NCBI GenBank assembly: GCA_016186955.1
Contig: JACPKP010000004.1
Span: forward strand, 71,288 to 135,287
From: Candidatus Daviesbacteria bacterium
GTDB lineage: Bacteria; Patescibacteriota; Microgenomatia; Daviesbacterales; UBA10151
Direction: 5' to 3'
Length of the DNA: 64,000 nt
Shown in pieces: positions 4,114-51,595 of this stretch. Below the pieces are notes generated by a model that was given only the letters and a program-made list of their open reading frames with translations, had not been told where the DNA came from and searched no databases. The position numbers and the translations under genes were made by a program. The number at the start of each line of letters is the position of its first letter. Positions within the stretch are counted from its first letter, which is position 1.

Positions 4114-5271
4114 TTTTTTTTGGTTCTCAATTATATAACCTAAAGAGACAAAAGCCGGGTTTTTTCTAATCCTGTAAATTAAGGCATTTAAAGCCCAATC
4201 AGAGCCTTCACCGTTTTTCCAAAGCGCTTCAAAAATTTCATCCTTGGTGACTGTTTTTCCTGCCCGGCTTTTAAGCAGTGCAAACAACCTTGATTCTTGA
4301 AACGGCAGCCTTACTCTGGCGCCCGATTTTATAAAATCAGCGAGGAGGGTGGTAAAAACCTCCAATTTTCCTCCGGTTTTTTTAACAAATCCTGTATCCA
4401 AAAGGTACTTTTCCGGAGTTTTTACCTTTTTTCCCAGGGCGGTTTTTTGGAGCAGTTTTCTTTGCGGATATTTAAGATATTTGTACAAGTCTTTAAGCTG
4501 GAATTTTATGGCCTTATCCTGCAGGGGATTTTCGTGCAGGCAGTCTGATTTTAAAAGAAGCTGCAAAAGCTGGTAGTGTCCGCCTGATAATTCTAAAGCC
4601 CTGTCAAAATCTTGATGCTTCAAAAATTTGGGAGCATTTAGTCCGGTAAGTTTTTTTAGATCTTCTTTTGAGTATGGTTTCAGGTAAAAAGTTTTAGAAT
4701 ACATATTTAAATTTCCGCCTGAGAGGGCTTTTGGTGATTGTTCCAGCAAAGGCCTGTTTGCCGCAAAAACCATGACAATTTTCTCTTTGTCTATATCACG
4801 CAATGAGCGCAAATTTGAGAAAAAAGATTGTTCCAGCAAAGGCCTGTTTGCCGCAAAAACCATGACAATTTTCTCTTTGTCTATATCACGCAATGAGCGC
4901 AAATTTGAGAAAAAATCTTCATTGAATTCCTTTTTAAGCCTGTCAAAACGGTTAAAAATTATGACTATGCGTCTATGTTTTTGAGCAAGCTCTTCCAGAG
5001 GATGGCGCAACTGCTTGCGGAGCAGTTTAAAGAGCTCACTTCTTGACAGTTTTGGAAGCTCATTGATATCGACATGGACAAAGTATGCGAATTTTTGGGT
5101 CGCCAGGAAACGCAAAAAAATAGAAATACCCATCGAAGGCATGCCGCAGACTGAAAATGTTGTGGAGTTTTCAATAAGTTGCCTGATCTTTTTAATATCC
5201 TCCCTGCAAAATTTCGGCCCCAGTTTTGCTTCTTTGAAAGAATTTGACATAAGTAAGTTGAAACGCGTCAC
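4087..5271 (-). CDS. AAA-type ATPase with a C-terminal OmpR/CadC-type winged-helix DNA-binding domain (putative transcriptional regulator). It contains an exact 30-aa internal duplication.
   Basis: The C-terminus 'TVTKDEIFEALWKNGEGSDWALNALIYRIRKN...GYSL' matches trans_reg_C. The N-terminal half looks like a P-loop ATPase. The segment 'FFSNLRSLRDIDKEKIVMVFAANRPLLEQS' occurs twice. Confidence 0.55.
   Translation of the reverse strand: MTRFNLLMSNSFKEAKLGPKFCREDIKKIRQLIENSTTFSVCGMPSMGISIFLRFLATQKFAYFVHVDINELPKLSRSELFKLLRKQLRHPLEELAQKHRRIVIIFNRFDRLKKEFNEDFFSNLRSLRDIDKEKIVMVFAANRPLLEQSFFSNLRSLRDIDKEKIVMVFAANRPLLEQSPKALSGGNLNMYSKTFYLKPYSKEDLKKLTGLNAPKFLKHQDFDRALELSGGHYQLLQLLLKSDCLHENPLQDKAIKFQLKDLYKYLKYPQRKLLQKTALGKKVKTPEKYLLDTGFVKKTGGKLEVFTTLLADFIKSGARVRLPFQESRLFALLKSRAGKTVTKDEIFEALWKNGEGSDWALNALIYRIRKNPAFVSLGYIIENQKKSGYSLIRN
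4736..4915. repeat. perfect 90-bp tandem duplication (2 x 90 bp, in frame) inside the AAA/wHTH regulator gene
   Basis: 4736-4825 is identical to 4826-4915, read directly from the sequence. Confidence 0.9.
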
Positions 5272-7741: not shown

Positions 7742-8713
7742 ATGAGCATAGAATCATCAATCCGGACAAGCCGTGAAATCAGTGTGGATCCTTTGGAAAT
7801 TTATTTAAAAGATATTAACCAGGGGGAGTTACTGACAGCGCAAGAGGAGCTAGACTTGGCTAAAACTTACGGAAAAGGCAGGAGGGCTCAAGAAAAATTA
7901 AAAACATGTGAAGGCGGCCGCAGCAAGAAAAGGTTGGAAAAGATTGTTGCTGAAGGGCAGGAGGCAAAAACAAAACTGATTGAAAGGAATTTAAGGCTGG
8001 TTGTTAGTATAGCGCAAAAACACGGCAGAAAAGGTTTACCCCTTTTGGATTTAATCCAAGAGGGCAACTTCGGACTTTTCAGGGCGGTTGATAAATTTGA
8101 TTTTAAGAGGGGATATAGATTTTCAACATATGCTTACAGATGGATAGAACAATTTATAAATAGGACTCTGGCTAATGATTCAAGGAATATCAGAATACCG
8201 GTGCATGTGGTTGAAAAGTTTGGCAGGATAGACAGGATTTCTGCAGATGTGGCACAGGAATTTGGCAGGGAGGCAACACCCGAAGAAATGGCATTGGCAA
8301 TGAATACTACAGTTGCCAGGATAAGGGAGATCGATAGAGCCAGGCAGGAATCTGTTTCGCTTGAAAAGCCTGTCAGAAGCAAGGATGGTGATGACCGGGC
8401 AGCCAAATTGGAAGATATTATAAAAGCCCCGGATGATTCTGCAGTTGAAGCGGTAGAAAGTGTTGCAGAGTCCGAACTTTTAAAAATCCTGAAAGATAAT
8501 TTAAGCGAGAGGGAATATCAAGTGTTGCTAATGCGCTTTAGTGAGCAAAAACCACTTCAGGAAATAGCAGGGGCTATTGGTATATCCAGGGAGAGGGCCA
8601 GGCAGATTGAAATAAAGGCTTTGGGGAAGTTAAGAACACCCAGAATACAAAACAGACTAAAAAAGTTCATTAGTGATGAACCGCTAAAAATTATAAGAGA
8701 AAACTATTCATAA
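7742..8713 (+). CDS. RNA polymerase sigma-70 family factor (regions 1.2, 2, 3 and 4 present)
   Basis: 'LIERNLRLVVSIAQKH...LLDLIQEGNFGLFRAVDKFDFKRGYRFSTYAYRWIEQFI' is region 2. The C-terminal HTH is 'LQEIAGAIGISRERARQIE'. Confidence 0.85.
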   Translation: MSIESSIRTSREISVDPLEIYLKDINQGELLTAQEELDLAKTYGKGRRAQEKLKTCEGGRSKKRLEKIVAEGQEAKTKLIERNLRLVVSIAQKHGRKGLPLLDLIQEGNFGLFRAVDKFDFKRGYRFSTYAYRWIEQFINRTLANDSRNIRIPVHVVEKFGRIDRISADVAQEFGREATPEEMALAMNTTVARIREIDRARQESVSLEKPVRSKDGDDRAAKLEDIIKAPDDSAVEAVESVAESELLKILKDNLSEREYQVLLMRFSEQKPLQEIAGAIGISRERARQIEIKALGKLRTPRIQNRLKKFISDEPLKIIRENYS

Positions 8714-13252: not shown

Positions 13253-13311
13253 GCGGATATTATACAAGGGCTTTAAAAAATTTGCAAAACTTGGTACAAT
13301 TGCTTGCATTT

Positions 13312-16239
13312 ATGGCAGCAGACAAAATTATTATTAAAGGGGCCCGCGAAAACAACCTGAAAAATATTGACTTGGAGATTCCCAAAAACCAACTTGTGGT
13401 TTTTACAGGGATCTCCGGTTCCGGTAAATCCTCGCTGGCTTTTGACACCCTTTATGCTGAAGGGCAGAGGCGTTATGTTGAATCCTTAAGCGCTTATGCC
13501 AGGCAGTTTTTGGGGGTGATGGATAAACCTGACGTTGATTATATAGAAGGGTTATCCCCTGCCATCTCAATTGACCAGAAGGCTGCTTCCCACAACCCAA
13601 GATCTACCGTAGGCACAACGACTGAAATATATGATTATTTAAGGTTGTTGTTTGCCAGGATAGGCCATCCCCATTGCCCAATCTGCGGCAGGGAGATCTC
13701 CAGGATAAGTGTGGAGCAGATAGTAGAACAGGCGCTGGAAAGTCAAAAGGAAAAAGTAAAAAGTAAAAAAGGCGGAAGGATTATGGTGTTGGCGCCTATT
13801 GTCAAAGATAGGAAGGGAGAATATACATCACTTTTTGAGGATCTTAGAAAAAAAGGGTTTTCCAGGGTGAGGATTGATGGGGTTATCAGGGATTTGGCAG
13901 AAGACTTTTTACTGATTAAAACAAACAAACACACCATTGATGTGGTAGTGGACCGCCTAGTGTTGGATAAAACTGCCATTTCGAGTATTAGCGAGAAATC
14001 TCAAGTTCTCACACGCCTTTCACAATCCATTGAAACAGCTCTTAAAATGGGGGAGGGGTCAGTTATCATTTCAGAAGTTTTAGATGCTTCACTGGAATTT
14101 CCGGTAAACCCCAAAAAAATGAAGGACCACCTTTTTTCAGAGAGGTTTGCCTGCCCTGTAGATAACATAGCGCTTGCGGAGATTGAACCAAGGCTTTTTT
14201 CATTTAACTCCCCTCATGGGGCTTGCCCTGGGTGCACCGGACTAGGCACATTACTTGAGATTGATCCTGACGCTGTGTTAAACCCAATACTATCTATAGC
14301 GGAAGGGGGGATATTGCCCTGGTCAAAGCTTGCCAATAATGAAACCTGGTTTACCAGGCTCATTGAAGCTGTCGGGAAGAAATACGGTTTTGACCTTTTT
14401 ACCAGGCTAGGGCAAATTTCCGAAAAAAGTAAGAAAGTTTTGCTTTTTGGGGCAGGAGATGAACAATTTAAAGTTGAGGGTAAAAACAGGCAGGGGAGAT
14501 GGACCCATTTTTATTCCACTTTTGGTGGTTTAGTTGAATACCTTAAAGAGCGCTACAAAGAGACTGAATCTGATTATGTAAAAGCCGAAATTGAAAAATA
14601 TATGGTTAAAGAAATATGCCGGTTATGCCTTGGCGCAAGACTCAAAAAGGATGTTTTATCTATCACTGTTGACGGATTAAACATTGCTGAGGTAACTACC
14701 CAGTCCATAAATGAGGCATTGGAGTGGTTTAAAACCTTGGTTATGCCAAAACTGACAGAGCGTGAAATAACAATAGCGAAACCGGTCCTGAAAGAAATTT
14801 GTTCCCGCCTGCAGTTTTTAGTTGACGTAGGGCTGGCATACCTAACGTTGGACCGGGCTGCCATGACTTTGGCAGGAGGGGAATCGCAAAGGATTAGGCT
14901 GGCATCCCAGATCGGATCAGGACTTTCAGGTGTTTTATATGTTTTAGACGAACCTTCAATAGGATTGCACCAGCGGGATAACAACAGACTTATTGAGACT
15001 TTAAAAAGGCTGCGGGATTTGGGCAATACAGTCATAGTTAATGAGCATGATGGGGAAACTATAGAAAATGCGGATTTTCTAATTGAGATTGGCCCGGGAG
15101 CAGGGGAACACGGCGGGTATATTACATTTACGGGTACACCCGGGGAGATGAAGCAAGATAAGGATTCTCTGACAGGTAAGTATTTGTCAGGCAAGAAAAA
15201 AATTGAAGCTTTACCCGATTCAGCCCTTAGGAAAACTTCCGAAAACTTCGGGACTTTGGAAATAGTGGGTGCGAGCGAGCATAATTTAAAAAACATCAAT
15301 GTTAAATTCCCCTTAGGAAAACTTATCAGCATAACCGGGGTGTCTGGTTCGGGAAAATCAACTCTTGTGCATGATATTTTATATCGGGCTTTAGCAAATA
15401 AATTTTTCCACTCCAGGGAAAAAGCAGGCCAATTTCAAGAACTGGTTGGGATAGAAAATATTGATAAGGTTGTTTTAGTTGACCAATCCCCGATTGGGCG
15501 CACACCAAGATCCAACCCGGCTACTTATACAGGATCGTTTACTTTTATCAGGGAGCTTTTTTCTTCATCACCTGAGGCTAAAATACGCGGTTATGATCCC
15601 GGCAGGTTTTCATTTAATGTTAAAGGTGGCAGATGTGAAGTGTGCGAAGGAGAGGGGCAGATCAAAATTGAGATGCAGTTTTTACCCGATGTATTTGTAA
15701 CTTGTGAAGCCTGCGGAGGTAAAAGGTATAACAGGGAGGCTTTGGATATGCATTTTAAGGAAAAAAATATCTCTGAGGTTTTGGATATGACAGTGGAGGA
15801 AGCTTTAGATTTTTTCAAAAATATCCCTCAGGTAAAAAATAAGCTGACGGTTTTAAATGATGTAGGGTTGGGGTATATCAGGTTGGGGCAGTCTGCCACA
15901 ACCTTGTCAGGAGGGGAGGCCCAAAGGGTGAAGCTCTCAACCGAGCTTTCCAAACGCCCAACAGGGCATACTCTTTATATCCTTGATGAACCCACAACAG
16001 GGCTGCATTTTGCGGATATTGAGAGGCTGTTACAGATTCTCAGAAGGTTGGTTAACTTGGGCAATACTGTGGTGATCATTGAACATAACCTGGATGTGGT
16101 GAAAAATGCAGACTGGGTCATAGATCTGGGCCCTGAGGGCGGGGATATGGGAGGGAAAATTATCGGTGAGGGTACACCAAAACAGCTGTCACAAATTAAA
16201 ACTTCCTACACCGGCCAATATTTAGCAAAGATATTTTAA
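13312..16239 (+). CDS. uvrA: excinuclease ABC subunit A (UvrA)
   Basis: '[59 protein letters not shown]' is present. Two ABC ATPase modules and zinc-finger Cys clusters are also present. Confidence 0.95.
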
Positions 16240-16782: not shown

Positions 16783-16912
16783 TTTTTAATCATTATAGCA
16801 CAAAAACTATAACTGCTGTATATAGTTTGGCTAAATTCGTAATTGGTGTCTTTTCCTGCTAGAATTTAGATTAGATCCTATTGTGGTAGTTTCCACTCCA
16901 GGATGACAGTTA

Positions 16913-18781
16913 ATGAAGAAAATAATTTATTGCGTAATAATTTTACCTGTTTTACTTTTTACTTTTTACTTTTTACTTTTTACTCCTGTTTTTGCTGCAG
17001 GGGAGTTTGCCACCTCATATAACATTACCTATGATGTGCTGCCTTCAGGGGAGACTGAGGTGGAGGAAGATGTTAAACTAAGGAACTTAACTGACCGTTT
17101 CTATGCCTCCTCTTTTACCCTAAGTATTGGGGCAACCAGTATCTCTGATGTTACAGCCTCAGATTCGCAGGGGCAGATTCCAGTGGAAGTTTCAAAAAAT
17201 AATACAAAAACCAATATTACAGTTAGATTTACCTCCCAGGTTGTTGGCAAGGACAAAGAGTATCTTTGGAAACTCAGGTTTAAATCCAAGGATTTTGCAC
17301 AAGCACAAGGTAAAATTTGGCAGGTATCGGTGCCAAAGATTTCTTCGCTTGAGGATTTGGATAATTATAGCTTGGTATTATCCATACCCGTTAGCTTTGG
17401 TGATCCGACATCAATCACCCCGGAACCCAAAAAACAGACTGAGGCAGGGGGTAGATTGAATTTATATTTTACAAAGGAACAGCTTTCGGATTCAGGAGTT
17501 TTAGCTAATTTTGGCACTGACCAGACCTTTGAATTTCAGGCTAACTTTCAAATTTACAACAAATCCATAGTGCCAGCTTTAGCCAGAATCCCTTTACCTG
17601 CTGATACAGAGTACCAGCAGGTAATGATACAAAACATTAACCCGAAACCGGAAAATGTCATCAAAGATGGCGACGGCAACTATATAGCCTGGTTTAAGGC
17701 GGACAAAAGACAATCTTTAAAGGTAGAAGTTTCCGGTTTAGCCCGCCTGTCCTTCAAAAGCAAAAAAAAGACAGAACTCTCCACAGATGAGATAATTACT
17801 TATACCTCAAGCCAGAAATACTGGGAAAAAGATACTCCCCAGATTAAAAATAAACTTGCGGAGGTTTTTAAGGATAAAAAGATCAACTCAAATTCAGAAA
17901 AAGCAAGGTTGATCCATAAATTTATAAGCTCCTTTTTACAGTATGACCAGAGCAGGTTAAACGAAAAAAATTTCCAGAGGTTGGGAGCCTTAACTGCCCT
18001 TTCCAACCCTGACAAGGCATTATGCAGTGAGTTTACTGACCTGTTTGTTGCAATGGCGCGCTCAGCGGGTGTGCCCGCAAGGGCGCTCATCGGGTATGCA
18101 TACACCTCCAACAATGATTTAAGGCCGCTTTCTTTTGGAGACAGCATCCTTCATGCATGGCCTGAATATTTTGACCCTGATTTGGGATGGGTTATGGTTG
18201 ATCCGACCTGGGAAAATACTACAGGCGGAGTAGATTATTTTTCCAAGCTGGATTTAAATCATTTTGTTCTTTTAACAAGGGGGTTATCTTCCGAAGATCC
18301 GCTACCTCCGGGTGAGGTGAGTGTTAAATTTTCCGATGCAGAATTTAAACCAAGTGCGAAAATTAACCTGTCGATTGATGCCCAGCCGGAAATCTTTGCA
18401 GCCTTTCCTGCAAAAGCTACAGTGCGGGTGGAAAATTCCGGAAATGCAGTAGCTCCTATAAGCAATTTAAGCTTTTCTGCTGCAAATTTGAAAATTGTAG
18501 GTGATAATCCGGTTGGGGTTCCAGGTTTGCCCCCTTTTGGGTCATTTAAGTATGAGTATGATCTTCGGACTAATAACCTTTGGGAATCATATGATGATAT
18601 CCTGCAGCTTAAAGTAGGAGAAGAGACAATTGAAAAAAAAGTAAGAATTAAACCTTTTTTTGCCTACCAGTATTTTGCACCGGTAGTAATAAGTATTATT
18701 TTATTGATGGTAGGTATTTATGCCGGAATATTGTACCTGCGGCTTAAAAACAGAAACGATTATAATTTAAAACCCCGTTGA
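16913..18781 (+). CDS. transglutaminase-like domain membrane/secreted protein
   Basis: 'ALCSEFTDLFVAMARSAGVPARALIGY...HAWPEYFDPDLGWVMVDPT' is the Cys-His-Asp transglutaminase core. An N-terminal signal/TM segment and a C-terminal TM segment are present. Confidence 0.7.
   Translation: MKKIIYCVIILPVLLFTFYFLLFTPVFAAGEFATSYNITYDVLPSGETEVEEDVKLRNLTDRFYASSFTLSIGATSISDVTASDSQGQIPVEVSKNNTKTNITVRFTSQVVGKDKEYLWKLRFKSKDFAQAQGKIWQVSVPKISSLEDLDNYSLVLSIPVSFGDPTSITPEPKKQTEAGGRLNLYFTKEQLSDSGVLANFGTDQTFEFQANFQIYNKSIVPALARIPLPADTEYQQVMIQNINPKPENVIKDGDGNYIAWFKADKRQSLKVEVSGLARLSFKSKKKTELSTDEIITYTSSQKYWEKDTPQIKNKLAEVFKDKKINSNSEKARLIHKFISSFLQYDQSRLNEKNFQRLGALTALSNPDKALCSEFTDLFVAMARSAGVPARALIGYAYTSNNDLRPLSFGDSILHAWPEYFDPDLGWVMVDPTWENTTGGVDYFSKLDLNHFVLLTRGLSSEDPLPPGEVSVKFSDAEFKPSAKINLSIDAQPEIFAAFPAKATVRVENSGNAVAPISNLSFSAANLKIVGDNPVGVPGLPPFGSFKYEYDLRTNNLWESYDDILQLKVGEETIEKKVRIKPFFAYQYFAPVVISIILLMVGIYAGILYLRLKNRNDYNLKPR
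16961..16990 (+). repeat. tandem hexamer (TTTTAC)x5 inside the signal-peptide coding region of the transglutaminase-like gene
   Basis: 'ttttactttttactttttactttttactttttac' is read directly. Confidence 0.8.
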
Positions 18782-18783
18782 GT

Positions 18784-20118
18784 ATGGTTCCAAATTATAT
18801 TGAGAGGCTTAAAATTCCCCATAAACCCGGTATTTATATTTTTAAAAGTAGGGACGGGAAAGTTTTATATGTGGGGAAAGCAGTAGACCTTTACCGCCGG
18901 GTTTCTTCCTACTTTAATGGCAGGAGTGTTGGCAATACTGCACATTTGGTAGAGAGAATCAGCAGTTTAAAGACAATAATAGTGGAATCAGAGCTTGAAG
19001 CGCTGATTTTAGAAGCCAATCTGATCAAAAAGTATCTACCTCCTTTTAATATCCGCCTTATTGATGATAAGGATTACCTTTATATTGCAGTCACTAAAGA
19101 GGATTTTCCTAAGGTGATAACAGCCAGAAAAAAAGACCTGAAGCCTATCAAAGAATGGTTTGGGCCTTTTCCTTCCGCAACAACTGTAAAATCAACGCTC
19201 AAACAGTTAAGAAGAGTTTTTCCATGGTGTAGCAACCCACCAAAAACACGGCAACGACCGTGTTTTTACTACCATATTGGTTTATGCCCAGGGGCATGCG
19301 TTGGCAAAATTTCCAAAGCTGACTATGCAATAACCATCAGGAGATTTTCCAAATTTATGAAAGGACAAAAGCAGGCGTTGTTAGATGAGCTGACAAGTAA
19401 TATGCAAAGGTTTGCAAAAAACCAGCAGTTTGAGGAGGCGCAAAAAGTTAAAAAAATAATAACAGGAATTGAGTACCTGACCCAAACCAACAGGGTGGCA
19501 AAATATCTGGAAAACCCCAATTTTTTAGAACAGGAAAACTTAGAAGCTCTTCATAACTTACAAAAGGATCTCAATTTACCAAAACTTCCGGTTAGAATTG
19601 AAGCTTATGATATCTCCAATATACAGGGTATGGAGGCGACAGGTTCAATGGTGGTTTTGACTGATGGTGAAATTGATAAATCCCAGTATAGGAAGTTTAA
19701 AATTAGGAGCTCCGGCAGGCCTAATGATGTGGGGATGCTACAGGAGATGATGGGAAGAAGGTTAAATCATCCAGAGTGGGGTATCCCGGACCTGATTTTA
19801 ATAGACGGAGGGAGAGGACAGGTGAGGGGAGTGTACAATGTCGTTCTGCAAAACGATCTAAAGATTGCTTCGTCCTCCGATGGACATCGGAGTCCTCGCA
19901 ATGACGTCATTGCGAGCGAAGCGAAGCAATCTATCCCCATTTTTGGTCTTGCAAAGCGGATGGAATGGCTTTATCCTTCCGAAGGCGAAGTAATTAAGCT
20001 GCCAAAAAGAAGCCTGTCTTTGCGCCTTTTGCAAAAGATCCGTGATGAGTCCCACAGGTTTGCAATAACTTACCACAGAAAATTAAGGCAAAAAAAATTT
20101 GGTTTAGTCACAAAGTAG
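18784..20118 (+). CDS. uvrC: excinuclease ABC subunit C (UvrC). This is a short form with GIY-YIG, UVR and RNase-H-like endonuclease domains and no C-terminal (HhH)2 domain. It carries an in-frame palindromic insert.
   Basis: 'PGIYIFKSRDGKVLYVGKAVDLYRRV' is GIY-YIG. 'FEEAQKVKKIITGIEYL' is the UVR domain. 'LILIDGGRGQ...FGLAKRMEW...RDESHRFAITYHRK' is the endonuclease domain. Confidence 0.85.
   Translation: MVPNYIERLKIPHKPGIYIFKSRDGKVLYVGKAVDLYRRVSSYFNGRSVGNTAHLVERISSLKTIIVESELEALILEANLIKKYLPPFNIRLIDDKDYLYIAVTKEDFPKVITARKKDLKPIKEWFGPFPSATTVKSTLKQLRRVFPWCSNPPKTRQRPCFYYHIGLCPGACVGKISKADYAITIRRFSKFMKGQKQALLDELTSNMQRFAKNQQFEEAQKVKKIITGIEYLTQTNRVAKYLENPNFLEQENLEALHNLQKDLNLPKLPVRIEAYDISNIQGMEATGSMVVLTDGEIDKSQYRKFKIRSSGRPNDVGMLQEMMGRRLNHPEWGIPDLILIDGGRGQVRGVYNVVLQNDLKIASSSDGHRSPRNDVIASEAKQSIPIFGLAKRMEWLYPSEGEVIKLPKRSLSLRLLQKIRDESHRFAITYHRKLRQKKFGLVTK
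19871..19941. repeat. 71-bp GC-rich nested-palindrome mini-element inserted in frame in uvrC (MITE/REP-like)
   Basis: Outer 11-bp inverted repeats are agattgcttcg / cgaagcaatct. Inner perfect palindromes are tccgatg-ga-catcgga and tcgcaatgacgtcattgcga. The insert encodes 'IASSSDGHRSPRNDVIASEAKQS', which is absent from the aligned region of canonical UvrC. Confidence 0.6.
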
Positions 20119-36264: not shown

Positions 36265-38604
36265 ATGGCAGAACGTAAAGTAGAGGAACCTAAAAAACTT
36301 CAAAAGACAATTCCCGCCCAGGATATTATTCCAAATGGCTCTGCCTCAAAATCAAAACAAAAGGAGATGACCCAAGAAGACCGTCTCCGTGCTTCACTAG
36401 CCCTGGAAGCGTTATTACCTCAAAAAATTAAACCTATTCAGTCCTTGGATCAGGTGCACAAGATCTATCAAACAAAGGATGAATCCAATAAGATTGATGA
36501 ATTAAAATATGATATCAAAAGTGATTCTGTCAGGACATTGTATCTATCAGAAATACTCGCCGGTAATAATACTGCAGACCTCCCTTTTTTAATTGAAACA
36601 ATACAAAGAATTAAAGGGTCCCCGGAAGAGTACCAACCTGATATTGTTGTGGTATCAGGACTTTTGGAAGGAAATTATAAATTTAGGGATAAGGATAGAC
36701 GTTCAACCTTAGTTTTATCATTGGACCAGCAGTTTGCAACTGCGAATTTAATATTGAAGGAGCTTGAGGGATTGGGATCTGAGATTATCTATTCATTATC
36801 AACCGAAGATAGGGAGATTTGCAGGGACGGTACAATAGAAGCTATGCGGGCGCTGCAGAATACAGCTAAACCTTTGATTGACAAAAATAAGGGGCTGGTA
36901 ACCTATTGGCAGATTGATCAGATTAAACAAAACCCGGCTTGGGATACCCACCTGAAATTCCAGACCAATGTGGTTTTTGAATACTGCCTGCGTTCTGGCA
37001 GAAGATTAAAATCAGCAGAAGAGGTCAAAGAGGCAACAAAAGGCAAAATAATGATGGAGGAGTATTTAATGCTGTATGATGCTTTTCAAAAATTAGTAAA
37101 ATTACAGGATATACCTGCGGGCTACAGAGAAGTTCTGGAACTTGATAATATTCCCCTTCCTGATAAAAAATTCAGCGCTTTTGAATTGGCAGATGACATG
37201 GATCTGGTTGTAAATGCAAACAGCAACAATTTTACCCAAAAGGTCAAACACAACTTTAAATTCGGCGCTAAACCGTTAACCCGTAACCCAACCGATGTGC
37301 CTGAAGCAATTACCAGACAATTAAGTTCCGAGGGAATTAAACCACCCAACGCGCTTATTACTTTAAGCCAGCATCAGACTTTGGGGGTAGGGGATGCAGA
37401 AAACACCTGGATGATATCAACAGGCAGTTTTTTAGATACCAGTAAGACGCTTGATCAAAAAGGCAGTATAGCCTCAGCCGGCCGAGCGCCTTCCTGGAGA
37501 AGTTTAACTACTAGAAAAATCGTCAGTTTACCAACAGCTACCATGCACGAGTTTACAGATGACGGTAGGCATGTCATTACTTTCTATAATAAAAAACTGC
37601 TGGAAAAGGCAGACTATGCTGAGCGGACCACTATTTTAACAATTACTGATTGGCAGACAGGTTCAATGTCCGCCAGGCCGGATTTGCAGGTTAAGCTTCT
37701 GGACCTGGCTATTTCAGAGATTTTGCCGGGTAGGCCCATGTGGGTGCTTTCTACGGGAGATTTATTCCACGGGCAAAATTATAAAGGGTTATCAATGGAA
37801 AATTTCCGGACAGGGCAAATCAGAATTGAGGATCAGCAAAGGTTTGTTCAAGAACTGCTGGAAAGATCAACAAGCCATATTTCAACGGGAAATTTATCAA
37901 ACATAGCCGGTGTGAGCATTGTTCCGGGCAATCATGAATGGAATTCCAACTATGTTAATACAGGGGCGATATTCAACCTCTCCCTGGTAAATTCTTTTAG
38001 AAATCTTTTAAAAACGGATGTGGAAACTGCCGGAAAAAAGGTTCGCGCCAGCGAGCTGCTTGATACTCCAAACGGGGATGTTGTGCCTGTTTGGAGCTCG
38101 TTTGATGAAATCGCAGGGTATGGAGTATTATCCCAGCATATGTACCTTGATAAAGCCGGTGGTAAGGTGCCGATCTACCATGCACAGAAATTTATAGAAG
38201 GGTCAGGGGACTTTGGAAGAAAAATTGATATCTCATCAACCGGCCACTGGCACCACAACCAATATGCCGTGTTCGGCAATAAGCTGCATGTGATCAACCC
38301 CTCTGTGGCAGGTTTGACCAACTATGAAATGATGAAAGGTTTACGGCCCACAGTGGGAGGAGCCCTGATCCATGTGGGGGGTGGTTTACCGGTGCAGGTT
38401 GAATTTTTAAGCTTAGATACTTTGCTTAGCCATAAAATTACTGATGGATATTTCTCAGATGAAAACCTGGCCAGGGAGGGGTTTATTGACGACCGGCACT
38501 TTGACCCGAAAAGGGATGGGTATTTTCATAGAAAATCCGCCCTCCAGAAAGCTTTATGGGGTTTACATGATGAGCTGATCAAAAAGATCGACTCCCATCT
38601 TTAA
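36265..38604 (+). CDS. large protein with a C-terminal calcineurin-like metallophosphoesterase domain
   Basis: 'STGDLFHG', 'VPGNHEWN' and 'GHWHH' are the MPP motifs. The N-terminal ~470 aa is uncharacterised. Confidence 0.5.
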   Translation: MAERKVEEPKKLQKTIPAQDIIPNGSASKSKQKEMTQEDRLRASLALEALLPQKIKPIQSLDQVHKIYQTKDESNKIDELKYDIKSDSVRTLYLSEILAGNNTADLPFLIETIQRIKGSPEEYQPDIVVVSGLLEGNYKFRDKDRRSTLVLSLDQQFATANLILKELEGLGSEIIYSLSTEDREICRDGTIEAMRALQNTAKPLIDKNKGLVTYWQIDQIKQNPAWDTHLKFQTNVVFEYCLRSGRRLKSAEEVKEATKGKIMMEEYLMLYDAFQKLVKLQDIPAGYREVLELDNIPLPDKKFSAFELADDMDLVVNANSNNFTQKVKHNFKFGAKPLTRNPTDVPEAITRQLSSEGIKPPNALITLSQHQTLGVGDAENTWMISTGSFLDTSKTLDQKGSIASAGRAPSWRSLTTRKIVSLPTATMHEFTDDGRHVITFYNKKLLEKADYAERTTILTITDWQTGSMSARPDLQVKLLDLAISEILPGRPMWVLSTGDLFHGQNYKGLSMENFRTGQIRIEDQQRFVQELLERSTSHISTGNLSNIAGVSIVPGNHEWNSNYVNTGAIFNLSLVNSFRNLLKTDVETAGKKVRASELLDTPNGDVVPVWSSFDEIAGYGVLSQHMYLDKAGGKVPIYHAQKFIEGSGDFGRKIDISSTGHWHHNQYAVFGNKLHVINPSVAGLTNYEMMKGLRPTVGGALIHVGGGLPVQVEFLSLDTLLSHKITDGYFSDENLAREGFIDDRHFDPKRDGYFHRKSALQKALWGLHDELIKKIDSHL

Positions 38605-38626
38605 AATCCTTTTAAAAAAGAAAAAA

Positions 38627-38662
38627 GGCGGCCTGGTATAAAACCCGGCCGCCTCATGTTTC
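38627..38662. terminator. bidirectional rho-independent terminator between convergent genes
   Basis: 'GGCGGCCtggtataaaacccGGCCGCC' has a 7-bp GC stem. On the minus strand it is followed by TTTTTTCTTTTTT. Confidence 0.7.
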
Positions 38663-38683
38663 CGGCCTGAGCCGGCATATGCA

Positions 38684-38905
38684 CTACGACTTTGGAAATT
38701 TGGGCTTTACAAGATACACCATACTATTTCCGAACTGGAGTTTTACCTCCGAACCACACTGGCTGCAGAATGCAGCCCCCACTCTGACATGGTGGAAGGG
38801 GTCTCTACTGCAGACCCGGTGGCCCTGGTCTGTCCCACACCTGTGGCAATAGTTGTCCCCAGGGGACACCATTGCGGTACAATACGCACCTCTGCAATAA
38901 AACAC
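38684..38905 (-). CDS. small Cys-rich zinc-ribbon protein
   Basis: 'CHRCGTDQGHRVC...CSQCGSEV' gives CxxC...CxxC. A terminator follows. Confidence 0.45.
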   Translation of the reverse strand: MFYCRGAYCTAMVSPGDNYCHRCGTDQGHRVCSRDPFHHVRVGAAFCSQCGSEVKLQFGNSMVYLVKPKFPKS

Positions 38906-39004
38906 AGCCTACCTCCAGTTGTAATAGTGCGGGGAATATTATAGCACATTTTGCCCTATAGTCAACCACCACCCTGGTATGAGTTCAGTTCCCCCCAGCA
39001 ATTT

Positions 39005-39032
39005 CGTCATTGCGAGCGTAGCGAAGCAATCT
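39005..39032. repeat. second copy (28/29 identity) of the right half of the uvrC palindromic mini-element. Related fragments are at 39192-39209 and 39243-39262.
   Basis: 'cgtcattgcgagcgtagcgaagcaatct' versus 19913-19941 'cgtcattgcgagcgaagcgaagcaatct'. Confidence 0.6.
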
Positions 39033-39276
39033 TATTGTTCAAACGCAATACTCCTGGCGTTGAGCCAGGAGATGAAGTTTGTACGAGCGGTAGCGAGTAC
39101 TCTGCGAAGCAGATAAAACAAGAACGATACCGCATGCGTAAGCTTGCGGTAATTCATTAGATCGCCACGGGGCGTACCATTTTGGTACATCCCTCGCGAT
39201 GACGTTTGATTGGAAAAAACTGAATAGTTACCCACCCTGCGTCCTGATAAATCGGGACCCGGAATGACATCGTAGG

Positions 39277-41583
39277 TTATTTGAGGAACTTAACAAACAG
39301 TTCCTTGCTGTTTATTTTGGGAGCAGTAATTTTTCCTTCACCGGGTTTAGTCTCTTCTGTTTGTTTACCTGGTCTTTGGTCATTTTCATCAGGATACGTC
39401 CTGCCTTTAATCTCAGGGGCAAATTTGCTCATGTCAATCGGTTTGTCCCCGGTGTGCTCCTTGGTGTAGCGCTCTCTGGAAGCCCTGATTGCTTTTTCCC
39501 GGTTCTGGGTTTTGGATTGGGGCAGGGGTAGGGATTGGGCGAAAAAAGGGGTGGAAGTCAGTCCGTTAATGGACATCTTCAAAAGCAGCTGGTAATTTCC
39601 CAAACTTAATAAATCTTCCTCCTTAAACCGTTCCCCAAATTCCCTTGCCATAATCGGGGTATCCTCCGCCCCGATAATAAAGGACATGATAGTACCGGCG
39701 TTACCAAAAATTGCCGAACGCACCAGAGGGTCAATTTGGGCAGTGTATTGGTTTGCCAGGATCAGGTTAAGATGGTATTTCCTCGCCTCTGATAAGATTT
39801 TGATAAATGAGGTGGTGGCGAAGTTTTGGAACTCATCAACATAAAGGTAAAAATCACGCCTCTCTGCCTCAGGTGTATTAACCCGGTTCATGGCAGCAAG
39901 CTGAAGCTTGGTAATAATCATTGCCCCCAAAAGCGCGCTGTTGTCTTCACCTATCCTTCCCTGCGACAGGTTTAAGATTGCTATTTTACCGTTGTTCATA
40001 ATGTCTTCCAGATTAACAGTGGATTTGGGGAATGCCACAATATTGCGGATAACTTTGGATGATAAAAACTGCCCAACTTTATTTAAGATAGGGGAGATTG
40101 ACTCTTCCCTTAATTTGTCAGGCATTTTTTCAAACTCATTTGTCCAGTAGTTGACCAAAACCGGGTCCTGCAAATCTGCCACTGTTTTCTTCCTGAATTT
40201 CTGGTTTGTCAGGATTTCCGGAACCATCATTAAGGTTGAACTTGGTACGGCGATTAAAGTTAAAATTACATTGCGCAAAATATATTCCAGCCTGGGCCCC
40301 CATGAATCCCCGTAAAGCTTGTAAAAAATAGAGACAATGCCTGAGGCTATCAACTCTTTTTGGGCAGGGTTTGTTACCTCGAGCGGGTTTAAATGAAAAG
40401 GCCTGTCAACGTCAGCCGGGTTTAAATATACTATATCGTTGACCCTGTAGGAGGGGATGTAATCAAGCAGCACTTCTGACAGATCCCCGTGGGGGTCAAT
40501 GACTGCCAGCCCTTCGTTGTTCCGGATATCATTGATTGCGAGGTTGGCGATAAGCGTGGATTTACCGGTCCCGGTTTTTCCGATGATATACATATGTTTT
40601 CTCCGGTCTATCTGGTATATCCCGAAAATTGAAGACTTATTTTTAAATTCGGTCCTGGCAAAAAAGTTAATGCCTTTTTTTTCATCATCCGTCAGCTCAT
40701 AGGCAACGGGTAGGTTTTCCGGGGGGTCGGAGAGGATCGTTTTTGACCAGGAAATATTGCCTATTGTGGCTATTTTTGTACCGGGGAAATGGTATATTGT
40801 TGCTATTTCCATAATGTTTAATATTTGGTTTCTGGGAATATACGATATTTCTCTTAAAAGGATTGCCCTAATCAGCCCTTTGTGCTGCCAGAAAAAAGGC
40901 CTGACCAATGAAAGGCTGTTACCGGTGACGTTGTTAAAACTTATAAATGTTGCGGCAACAAGGTCCATTAGCGCCGGGTTGGAGCTTTTGGTGAGTATCC
41001 TGATTGCTGTTTTAAAACCAGGATAAGCAACTTTGTCAGATATCTGTTTAGAGTATGTACTGACCATTAAAGTATCCGGGGTAGTCTCATCCTTGTTCCC
41101 CTTTGACTCCATCATCCGCTGGCCTTTTGACTGCCACTTTGAGTTGACAGGACAAAGCAGAAACTGGACAACCACAACATCTTCTTTGGCTATCCTGGTC
41201 AGTATCCCCAAAAGGGATGACATCGGGTCAACATCCTTAAAATCATTAAAACTTTTAAGGGGATACAAAAAATTATGCTGAAGTTTAACCTGTCCTGCTT
41301 CAATATCTTTTTTTTCGGAAAGCAATGCCTGAAGTCCATCATCCTTGACCGGGGTTACTAAAGCTTTAGGGTATTGGGAGAGCAGTTGACTTTCAATGTA
41401 AGTCTGGTAAGCCAGTGGTGCGGCTATATAAAAATGGATGGCCTGGTTTACAACAACTATCTCCAAACTGAAGGCAGTTTTTGCTTTGATGCTTGTCAGC
41501 GATGCTAAAAACTGTACCATAGCTTCAGGTGTTTCTTCACCTGTGCGGGGGGTTTTAATCTCGAGTATTATTTTTTGATGCAT
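39277..41583 (-). CDS. VirD4/TraG/TraD-like P-loop ATPase (type IV coupling-protein family)
   Basis: Walker A is 'IIGKTGTGKST' and Walker B is 'FYLYVDEFQNF'. Length and architecture resemble the TrwB/TraD AAA_10 family. Confidence 0.6.
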   Translation of the reverse strand: MHQKIILEIKTPRTGEETPEAMVQFLASLTSIKAKTAFSLEIVVVNQAIHFYIAAPLAYQTYIESQLLSQYPKALVTPVKDDGLQALLSEKKDIEAGQVKLQHNFLYPLKSFNDFKDVDPMSSLLGILTRIAKEDVVVVQFLLCPVNSKWQSKGQRMMESKGNKDETTPDTLMVSTYSKQISDKVAYPGFKTAIRILTKSSNPALMDLVAATFISFNNVTGNSLSLVRPFFWQHKGLIRAILLREISYIPRNQILNIMEIATIYHFPGTKIATIGNISWSKTILSDPPENLPVAYELTDDEKKGINFFARTEFKNKSSIFGIYQIDRRKHMYIIGKTGTGKSTLIANLAINDIRNNEGLAVIDPHGDLSEVLLDYIPSYRVNDIVYLNPADVDRPFHLNPLEVTNPAQKELIASGIVSIFYKLYGDSWGPRLEYILRNVILTLIAVPSSTLMMVPEILTNQKFRKKTVADLQDPVLVNYWTNEFEKMPDKLREESISPILNKVGQFLSSKVIRNIVAFPKSTVNLEDIMNNGKIAILNLSQGRIGEDNSALLGAMIITKLQLAAMNRVNTPEAERRDFYLYVDEFQNFATTSFIKILSEARKYHLNLILANQYTAQIDPLVRSAIFGNAGTIMSFIIGAEDTPIMAREFGERFKEEDLLSLGNYQLLLKMSINGLTSTPFFAQSLPLPQSKTQNREKAIRASRERYTKEHTGDKPIDMSKFAPEIKGRTYPDENDQRPGKQTEETKPGEGKITAPKINSKELFVKFLK

Positions 41584-42782: not shown

Positions 42783-42978
42783 TAAGTAGAGCTTCTGGCG
42801 AGGTCTTATTTTCCCTTCATTTACCTTCTTTTAACTATTGTTAAGTAAGCGTTTTACCTGTACAATTATGCATAAACAGGCACGAGACGCGGTGTTGGCG
42901 CCTGCCCTGAGCGAAGCCGAAGGGAAAGACGCTATCACCGAGAGGACATTATTAAGCTAATAGCTAAAGAAAGTTAAT

Positions 42979-50727: not shown

Positions 50728-50787
50728 ATGATTAAATTATCGAGGTCTAAATTAGACTTACTTTTTGAATGTCCCCGTTGTTTCTGG
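50728..50787 (+). repeat. copy 4 (truncated) of the cassette-junction repeat. It starts immediately after the RhuM stop codon and diverges into GC-rich sequence.
   Basis: Read from the sequence. Confidence 0.8.
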
Positions 50788-50902
50788 GAGCGGGTGAGGG
50801 GAGTAACAACCTTTCGTTTCGCGAAAGAACGTTGCCCCGATAAATCGGGGTCGAACAGCTTTGCACTCCGTGCTGCGCAGCCTAACTCTCCAACCACCCT
50901 TT

Positions 50903-50935
50903 CAAACAGAAAAACTGGCCACAAGGACCAGTTTT
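50903..50935 (+). terminator. rho-independent terminator
   Basis: 'aaaaACTGGccacaaggaCCAGTtttttg' is a hairpin followed by a T6 run. Confidence 0.55.
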
Positions 50936-51158
50936 TTGTTCGAGAGCGGGTAATGACAATCTGTTCGAACTTTATTTAAAAACCTTTAATGGTTTGATGC
51001 AATGTTTTAGACCCTACCCTCAGGTTTATTCTTTTTGATGCTTGATGTGTTTTTAAACTTAAGGCCTTCTACAAAATCCTCTAATACTGTCGTTAATCTG
51101 GTTAAAAATTAATCCATATTTTCTGACATTAGATTATCTGTGACGGTTACTTTATGTT

Positions 51159-51362
51159 TCATGAACCAAAAAGAAAATGCCACATCTTTTCTACAAGAAA
51201 CCAACCAAAAAACCCTGCAATAACATATAATGGGAACCGCTTAAACTCTCCTAATATCTCTTTAATCTCGTTTAATACACCATTCTGGTAAGATATTTGC
51301 TCACTAAGTGTTTCCAATTGTTCTTCTAAATTTTCTAAGCTTTTTTTATCCATTTTTAACAT
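51159..51362 (-). CDS. hypothetical small membrane protein
   Basis: 67-aa ORF with a C-terminal TM segment. Confidence 0.3.
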   Translation of the reverse strand: MLKMDKKSLENLEEQLETLSEQISYQNGVLNEIKEILGEFKRFPLYVIAGFFGWFLVEKMWHFLFGS

Positions 51363-51595
51363 TCTACCATAAATTTGACTTTCGGGTAACCTATGGTATT
51401 ATTAAAATAATAATTACTTTGCTTCACAAAAAGCGGTAATTAGGTTTTAGATTTGCTGGGTCTTTAGAAGGAGCACAGGAATCTAGGAATCTGACGTTCA
51501 CTTAAGAAAAAGAAATGCGGTCGCAAGACAAACAGCTTTTTCACTTGGACTATTGCAGGTTCTTGGACTTTTGTGCTTTTTTAATGTAAAAAAAT

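Follow-up and report, generated by a model that had tools for sequence, protein, structure and literature searches.

Here we describe a short, GC-rich segment lodged inside the uvrC gene of a Candidatus Daviesbacteria bacterium, a member of the candidate phyla radiation (CPR, Patescibacteria), together with the wider family of hairpin-forming repeats to which it belongs. The window that we analysed comprises 64 kb of a 206,757-bp contig, in which the local gene order is uvrB, uvrA, a transglutaminase-like gene and uvrC. The uvrC open reading frame (ORF), which hosts the segment, lies at 18778-20118 on the plus strand and encodes a protein of 446 aa, in which Pfam recognises GIY-YIG, UVR and RNase H-like endonuclease domains and which matches a UvrC of a Candidatus Daviesbacteria genome at 100% identity. 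Within this gene stands a 71-bp nested palindrome (19862-19932, no strand assigned), formed by two inverted repeat units, the CGTC tags of which have 2 nt in common (GACGTC). We think it likely that two hairpin-forming, non-coding repetitive extragenic palindromic (REP) units of the CGTC type make up the segment, lodged as a pair in the DNA for a surface loop of UvrC and carried there as a tolerated passenger. REPs with GTAG and CGTC tags were defined by Di Nocera, De Gregorio & Rocco 2013, BMC Genomics 14:522 (PMC3733652).

Two inverted repeat units inside uvrC

The initial annotation had placed the palindrome at 19871-19941 and described it as one element with 11-bp terminal inverted repeats (TIRs). 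The palindrome itself stands, nine bases further upstream, and its outer arms AGATTGCTTCG/CGAAGCAATCT (11 nt each) show 100% complementarity; however, these arms are the 3' halves of two separate units and not the TIRs of a single element. The left unit (19862-19906, minus strand) reads CGTC-ATTGC-GAG-GACTCCGATGTCCATCGGAGGA-CGAA-GCAAT-CT and has its apical hairpin, CTCCGATG-ga-CATCGGAG, at 19875-19892, while the right unit (19905-19932, plus strand) has the compact form CGTC-ATTGC-GAG-CGAAG-CGAA-GCAAT-CT and holds a GCGAAGC mini-hairpin. The second inner palindrome, CTCGCAATGAC/GTCATTGCGAG, occupies 19895-19916, and both inner palindromes described at the outset are real. The 71 bp are thus two inverted repeat units joined at their CGTC tags. 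At 53.5%, their GC content exceeds that of the window (about 40%). The 71-nt segment is predicted to fold strongly into a three-way structure, with energies of -26 kcal/mol for DNA and -39.4 kcal/mol for RNA; the z-score is about -6.8, and none of 200 shuffles was equally stable. The fused-tag geometry of this pair is the sole case among the 292 units examined, in which 45 close pairs have their tags outside, 14 are in tandem and 6 have their tags facing. Just upstream, at 19839-19860 on the plus strand, the stretch TGTCGTTCTGCAAAACGATCTA can be aligned with the plus-orientation units (TGTCATTCTG...AGAATCTA) of the orthologues L088, L090 and L086; it may be a decayed and degenerate third unit, now coding for the helix end VVLQNDL.

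The true length of the extra DNA is 69 nt (19864-19932, plus strand) and not 71, because the first 'AG' of the palindrome falls in a lysine codon, AAG. These 69 nt are in the uvrC reading frame, contain no stop and encode IASSSDGHRSPRNDVIASEAKQS, residues 361-383 of the window UvrC (P0001), in agreement with the in-frame insertion of about 23 residues proposed initially. The motifs DGGxGQ and IPxxGLAK are 37 residues apart in the window protein, compared with the canonical spacing of exactly 14 in outgroup CPR lineages and Armatimonadota, and the same 14-residue spacing is present in most of 120 Daviesbacteria-type UvrC orthologues. Moreover, T. maritima UvrC (2NRR) aligns with the window protein in two blocks, one on each side of the insert, which upholds the view that canonical UvrC lacks it. 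In an AlphaFold2 model of the window UvrC (mean predicted local distance difference test, pLDDT, 80.6) the insert takes the form of a coil, its pLDDT about 50, placed between a helix (344-363) and a strand (386-389), with flanks at 84-95; on this model, it is a connecting loop inside the catalytic RNase H-like domain. The catalytic triad is DDH, as reportedly assigned by Karakas et al. 2007. The lack of an (HhH)2 domain, which had been remarked on in this gene, holds by Pfam but is common among the CPR UvrCs sampled and not peculiar to it. Indeed, the domain is absent from most of them, about 30 of the 164 sampled UvrC ORFs keep it at the C-terminus, those that do belong mostly to non-Daviesbacteria CPR lineages or to other phyla, and all sampled Daviesbacteria-type UvrCs end directly after the RNase H-like domain.

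The four full units of the window have a common tag, GAG/CGNN junctions and a CTN tail, and the unit consensus, 28-45 nt long, can be written CGTC-ATTGC-GAG-(CGNAG or hairpin)-CGAA-GCAAT-CTN. Each unit consists of an unpaired CGTC or TGTC tag, a 5-bp basal stem initiated by AT, a conserved internal loop GAG...CGA(A), a free apex and a 3-nt tail. At the apex stands either a GCGNAGC mini-hairpin, in which a 2-bp stem carries a GNA triloop, or a longer hairpin of 6-10 bp. According to Hirao and co-workers, GCGNAGC is reportedly an unusually stable DNA mini-hairpin. In viral contigs the variable base of the compact interior CGNAG is A in 28 cases, C in 12, T in 8 and G in 8. When CPR loci were scanned with a pattern that fixes only GTCAT...GAG...ATCT and leaves the pairing free, fully complementary stem triplets were present in 30 of 49 matches, against 0.77 expected, with seven pair types. 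We also considered a kink-turn at the GAG/CGAA junction and rejected it, reasoning that its strand layout is off the k-turn consensus.

Turnover of the UvrC loop and units in excision-repair genes

The orthologue alignment confirms that the insert is absent from most relatives, as had been expected, and adds that other REP inserts occupy the same loop. Inserts of 8-55 aa are found there in about 25 of the 120 orthologues, spread over at least eight clades of a neighbour-joining tree, several further orthologues have a shortened loop at this site, and the DNA of the inserts is REP material. L084 carries a homologue of the left unit of the window alone, at the identical site and in the identical frame, and L088 has the interior CTCCGATGGA...CGGAGTCC in common with that unit. 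L086 and L090 have TGTC-type pairs at the loop, where L086 also carries canonical CGTC-2-type units (TGTCATTCTGAACTCGTTTCAGAATCT). In L087 (186-1601, P0120) the same loop holds an inverted repeat of a different kind, 19 nt long (CCTCTCCCTAACCCTCTCC/GGAGAGGGTTAGGGAGAGG) and encoding PLPNPLLKGEG...RERVRERG; it belongs to another widespread GC-rich type. In the closest relative, L089 (10001-11272, P0002), the insert site holds only CGTCATTCTGGGAATGACG, a perfect 19-nt palindrome that corresponds to two CGTC tags and stem starts joined together, and the loop has 11 residues, three below the canonical length. Judging from this sequence, the palindrome resembles the scar that would be left if DNA between the two arms of a repeat pair had been deleted. 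Because the orthologue inserts show gains, swaps and collapses of REPs, the occupancy of uvrC is old and repeatedly remodelled rather than the product of one recent event. The helix-strand loop of UvrC is a turnover hotspot in Daviesbacteria. Plus-orientation units within UvrA and UvrC are read in a common frame, VIAS-EAKQS, in the window, L090, L091 and L093.

UvrC is not the only repair protein to contain such units. Our sample for this comparison consists of 2.0 Mb of CPR loci fetched around uvrC, which are mostly non-Daviesbacteria among the matches listed and in which the events share ancestry. It holds 44 strict units, of which nine lie in UvrA ORFs, eight in UvrC ORFs and about three in other credible ORFs. 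UvrA and UvrC together make up 28% of the ORF bases, yet they contain 17 of the approximately 20 intragenic strict units, an excess with a binomial P of 2e-7 when units are counted and of about 0.003 when independent events are counted (at least 8 of 11). Alignments of the two proteins display several loops with REP-type peptides in different lineages, and the UvrA loop at residue ~232 is occupied in several of them. In the UvrA ORFs of L089-L093, from related Daviesbacteria, in-frame units stand at residues ~150, 232 and 487-509 (for example IASEAKQSSLESKIATSPSAPRNDK); the window UvrA (13282-16239) has no units at these positions.

Relaxed constraint on nucleotide excision repair (NER), or a real functional or targeting link, is possible behind this bias. 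CGTC-type hairpin repeats come back at the same loops in CPR bacteria and in unrelated phyla, and it is tempting to speculate that they are targeted to, or selectively kept in, the NER genes encoding UvrA and UvrC, or that new units home to an existing CGTC tag, as at GACGTC. We regard this idea as unlikely; if true, it would mean that hairpin repeats are functionally linked to enzymes acting on unusual DNA structures or, alternatively, that an undiscovered site-specific mobilisation system is common to phyla and phages.

Copies elsewhere, mobilisation and the explanations weighed

The 28-mer CGTCATTGCGAGCG-(A/T)-AGCGAAGCAATCT occurs again in the window at 39005-39032 with one mismatch, as first reported, where the chance expectation is 0. 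This copy is an intergenic compact unit, CGTCATTGCGAGCGTAGCGAAGCAATCT, on the plus strand, and it has an inverted partner on the minus strand at 39159-39204, CGTC-ATCGC-GAG-(hairpin GGATGTACCAAAATGGTACGCCC)-CGTG-GCGAT-CT, a full unit that takes in the related fragment recorded initially at 39192-39209. The two form a tags-outside pair with a 126-bp spacer (39033-39158), and the stem of the partner differs from those of other units by a compensatory change (ATCGC/GCGAT vs ATTGC/GCAAT). A partial unit, read by eye at 39238-39269 (minus strand), has a TGTC-ATTCC head and a GATAAATC apical hairpin without the closing arm, and adjoins the stop codon of a 768-aa gene; the GATAAATC apical module is also present inside a full unit of a viral contig. 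At 16872-16908 (minus strand) a diverged unit, TGTC-ATCCT-GGAGTGGAAACTACCACAAT-AGGAT-CTA, lies directly upstream of the transglutaminase-like gene that precedes uvrC. In all, four full and about three diverged units were seen in the window.

Two other relatives had been proposed. The fragment listed at 42907-42925 is part of a headless relic, CCCT-GAGCGAAGCCGA-AGGG (42906-42928, plus strand), whose kinship to the family, judged against the interior consensus GAG-CGNAG-CGA(A), is weak. The region 50795-50960 has only the GATAAATC hairpin module in common with the units, and its membership is not demonstrable. The surrounding stretch, 50728-51595, is 870 bp long, gene-free and locally GC-richer, with several hairpins (for example CCCCGATAAATCGGGG) and a terminator-like stem. 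Close to the units at 39.0-39.2 kb, a 73-aa ORF (38684-38905, minus strand) with two CxxC pairs (YCHRCG...FCSQCG) probably encodes a small zinc-ribbon protein, and because of this ORF the 'intergenic' region with those units is shorter than it first appeared. Rfam returned nothing at the gathering threshold for 50728-51595, no match at E<=10 for the element region (19780-20010), and sub-threshold chance matches only for 38550-39330 (gathering and E<=10 thresholds).

The units extend well beyond this genome. A blastn search against plasmids found the 27-mer at 93-97% identity on plasmids of Novosphingobium, Methylosinus, Methylobacterium, Aulosira, Calothrix, Fischerella and others; it stands in at least 40 places on a single replicon, Novosphingobium pSA1, and the version on Aulosira laxa plasmid2 is identical to that at 39005 in the window. 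On these alphaproteobacterial and cyanobacterial plasmids the 27-mers typically form inverted pairs with the tags outside. Similarly, the pattern GTCATTGCGAG-N3-30-CGAAGCAATC is present in at least 120 IMG/VR contigs, with some copies in frame within phage proteins, and in further classes of the CPR (Gottesmanbacteria, Komeilibacteria and more) the same unit ends enclose other interiors. The core is therefore repeated in the window, in other phyla and in viral contigs, and the small REP/MITE-like family proposed by the initial annotation survives as a set of REP-like palindromic repeats, not as one specific to this genome but as a superfamily that crosses phyla.

Among the viral sequences, ORF L232_1 of the IMG/VR contig L232, and likewise L176, L254 and L288, encode phage proteins with in-frame runs of units (...DVIASPSPSVILSPSPPVILT...ATSPRFSGASRNDRV), including a portal-like one, and the viral contig L216 (2695-2818) carries the compact unit four times in tandem with a 33-nt period. 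From the in-frame runs in phage ORFs, viruses would seem both to carry and to translate CGTC-type units. That a 27-nt unit is present nearly unchanged in CPR bacteria, in alphaproteobacteria and cyanobacteria and in viral contigs speaks for horizontal carriage or for a conserved partner protein still to be discovered; we infer that carriage by phages and plasmids lies behind the near-identical units in distant phyla. A literature text search for the motif strings returned unrelated primers only. In separate literature searches, no paper came up in which REPs were connected with CPR, Microgenomates or Daviesbacteria.

The account that we favour can be put as follows. A pair of CGTC-type units would have lodged in the DNA for the UvrC surface loop; since the 69 nt were added in an open frame, uvrC stays intact. 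Translation would then turn the repeat into a disordered loop of 23 residues, joining a helix to a strand in the RNase H-like domain. As for its spread, a single-stranded hairpin form of the units could be moved by a trans-acting enzyme, by analogy with IS200/IS605 and with the systems formed by REPs and REP-associated tyrosine transposases (RAYTs). The insert is most likely a passenger rather than an adaptation.

Several points weigh against this account, and the first concerns the enzyme. No gene encoding an HUH/Y1 or TnpB-like protein of the IS200/IS605 type lies in the window, where tblastn with IS608 TnpA and E. coli RAYT (approximate queries), and then with real CPR RAYTs, detected no HUH transposase. 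RAYT-like Y1 genes (221 aa, Pfam Y1_Tnp) do occur in CPR relatives, at L003:7341-8006 and 1063-1668, L002:7391-8020, L005:4014-4628, L056:4916-5581 and L143:477-1145. Each of these is flanked by its own, different REP, of GTAG type or other (GCAACCTTCGAGGTTGC, ACACCTCGAAGGTGT, ACAGGTCCGACCTGT, GTAG-CAACCTTCGAGGTTG), and not by CGTC-ATTGC units, so that classical REP/RAYT systems exist in Patescibacteria and an IS200/IS605-type association of the units, raised initially as a point to check, was not borne out. In the 120 viral contigs no transposase recurs beside the units, where phage structural genes alone recur, and overall no mobilising enzyme was found in the window, the CPR loci or the viral contigs examined. 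Second, a single 28-nt unit is predicted to fold no better than shuffles (z ~0), and because the energy model rates it no higher, support for the unit hairpin comes from covariation and from the stability of GCGNAGC DNA mini-hairpins, and is comparative and not thermodynamic. Third, the 5-bp basal stem, internal loop and free apex of the present unit depart from the stem of 8-9 bp and loop of 4-5 nt given for the CGTC superfamily (PMC3733652, Table 1). In addition, the copy number covers the 64-kb window only; the frame is open in every orthologue insert seen at the UvrC loop, which is partly an ascertainment effect of protein-based searching; translation of the insert is something that we infer, as are its neutrality and the mechanism of mobilisation; and the UvrA/UvrC bias sits uneasily with pure neutrality. 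Two of the RAYT genes (L003b and L005) lie at the uvrB 3' end with a duplicated uvrB tail, and in L005, from Curtissbacteria, near-identical inverted REP pairs, CGTCATGCCGAAC.../...GTTCAGGATGACA (4812-4911 and 7871-7966), bracket uvrA, one directly ahead of its start and one directly behind its stop.

The bias leads to the alternative that fares best, namely that the insertions are selected functional elements, kept in NER genes for an effect on UvrC/UvrA activity or expression (an mRNA hairpin slowing translation, for instance, or a loop altering incision), or that they reflect gene-specific targeting. We judge this to be distinctly unlikely. The concentration of 17 of some 20 intragenic strict units in 28% of the ORF bases speaks for it, as do the occupation of the same UvrC loop and of the UvrA loop near residue 232 in several lineages, the RNA fold of -39 kcal/mol, and the same bias in other phyla, which the authors who reported it doubted to be fortuitous (PMC3733652). 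However, relaxed NER selection in reduced genomes would yield the same bias, and the loci were uvrC-centred and their events phylogenetically linked. Moreover, the inserts in the loop vary widely in sequence and have often disappeared or collapsed, most orthologues have no insert, and the loop is disordered in the model.

It is quite improbable that the segment is one 71-bp MITE (a miniature transposable element with inverted repeats) with 11-bp TIRs, acquired in a single recent insertion. This would account for the perfect 11-nt outer arms and for the folding of the whole segment as one structure, but no second 71-bp copy exists and what recurs is the unit of 28-45 nt, which the orthologue L084 carries singly, as the left unit, in the same place and frame. 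Furthermore, the flanks (CTAAAG and ATCCCC) show no target-site duplication, 71 nt is not a multiple of 3, and the fused-tag arrangement has no second example among the 292 units.

We find it very improbable that the insert goes untranslated, being cut out of the mRNA or bypassed by the ribosome like the GC-rich 'byp' elements of yeast mitochondria or the hop in T4 gene 60. Such a fate might be suggested by its high GC content and strong folding within a gene richer in AT; against this, the insert measures exactly 69 nt with no stop in the host frame, the orthologue inserts are all in frame and open, and plus-orientation units keep to the common VIAS-EAKQS frame, while no take-off/landing codon pair, no intron features and no Rfam match were seen. 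Finally, although variable loops are common at this place in Daviesbacteria UvrC, a native lineage-specific loop with coincidental palindromes is hardly credible given the 28-mer in non-coding window DNA (0 expected), in other phyla and in viral contigs, the fold z-score of -6.8 and the outgroup spacing fixed at 14 residues.

Relation to known repeat classes

The closest known class is the CGTC-tagged REP superfamily. Its members have an unpaired CGTC, TGTC or CCTC tag, an AT-initiated stem and a tail of 3 nt, are for the most part inverted dimers dispersed in tens to thousands of copies in a host genome, take in Rickettsia RPE-4/RPE-6 and Neisseria dRS3, and have no dedicated transposase (PMC3733652). 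They are also intragenic, notably in uvrA/B/C, uvrD, recBCD, polA and dnaE2, and short-stemmed or bulged members would have escaped the authors' own search (PMC3733652). The tag of the four full window units is CGTC and that of the diverged unit at 16908 is TGTC; in the viral contigs the base before GTC is T in 95 of 185 cases and C in 82 of 185. All stems open with the A-T and T-A pairs of the superfamily (ATTGC/GCAAT, ATCGC/GCGAT, ATCCT/AGGAT). The 3-nt tail, CTA or CTT in the window, differs from the CGTC consensus CCA, and viral contigs have CTC (72), CCA (51) and CCC (23). Here too, the units are mostly paired in inverted orientation, some lie within genes and no transposase recurs near them, and in-frame intragenic copies encoding 20-30 residues are common to both. 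Among the CGTC peptides in the supplement of the 2013 study are VIPAKAGI, ...RFRGND and RHSELVSGS (PMC3733652), and the UvrC orthologue inserts encode peptides of the same kind. The host phylum, Patescibacteria/CPR, lies outside the five phyla listed for CGTC repeats.

The other classes resemble the present units in part. Rickettsia palindromic elements (RPEs) are said to lie in frame in the protein genes of a reduced genome, as reportedly described by Ogata et al. in 2000. The likeness consists of in-frame palindromic repeats, of extra loops compatible with the protein fold and of repair genes such as uvrB as hosts, and an extra surface segment is what we find in UvrC: 69 nt in frame, a low-pLDDT coil and a split 2NRR alignment. 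RPE-1, by description, is set apart by its length of ~100-150 bp and its restriction to Rickettsia, as against 28-45 nt and a cross-phylum range. The small dispersed repeats of heterocystous cyanobacteria (Elhai et al. 2008, Genome Res 18:1484) are reportedly very short and mobile, with conserved flanks and variable hairpin interiors; that description is said to concern cyanobacteria only and not to centre on in-frame genic copies. Our units are like them by description, and identical 27-mers stand on the Aulosira, Calothrix and Fischerella plasmids. With REPINs and their RAYTs (Bertels & Rainey 2011; Nunvar et al. 2010) the uvrC pair has in common that two inverted REPs form one long hairpin; the cognate single-copy RAYT flanked by the same REP, which belongs to that system, was absent from the window and from the loci of CPR relatives. 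The MITE class was also tried and set aside, there being no target-site duplication and no parent insertion sequence found, and the 'TIRs' being internal parts of two units.

With these comparisons, the notion of 'selfish DNA in proteins', in frame and of the REP/RPE type, comes to include the candidate phyla radiation, and the 2013 observation of repeats accumulating in uvrABC genes is reproduced in an independent phylum. The helix-strand loop of UvrC offers natural variants (empty, single unit, pairs and collapsed remnant) for studying insertion, deletion and function, and CGTC-type units inflate and split protein alignments and give rise to false small ORFs when CPR genomes are annotated. 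REPs lying in frame, above all in uvr genes, were already known, and so was the survival of such copies within proteins that the uvrC insert, in frame and stop-free, illustrates; the novelty lies in the host phylum, in a short-stemmed design whose apex is modular, in the dynamics of the hotspot and in the identity of the units across phyla.

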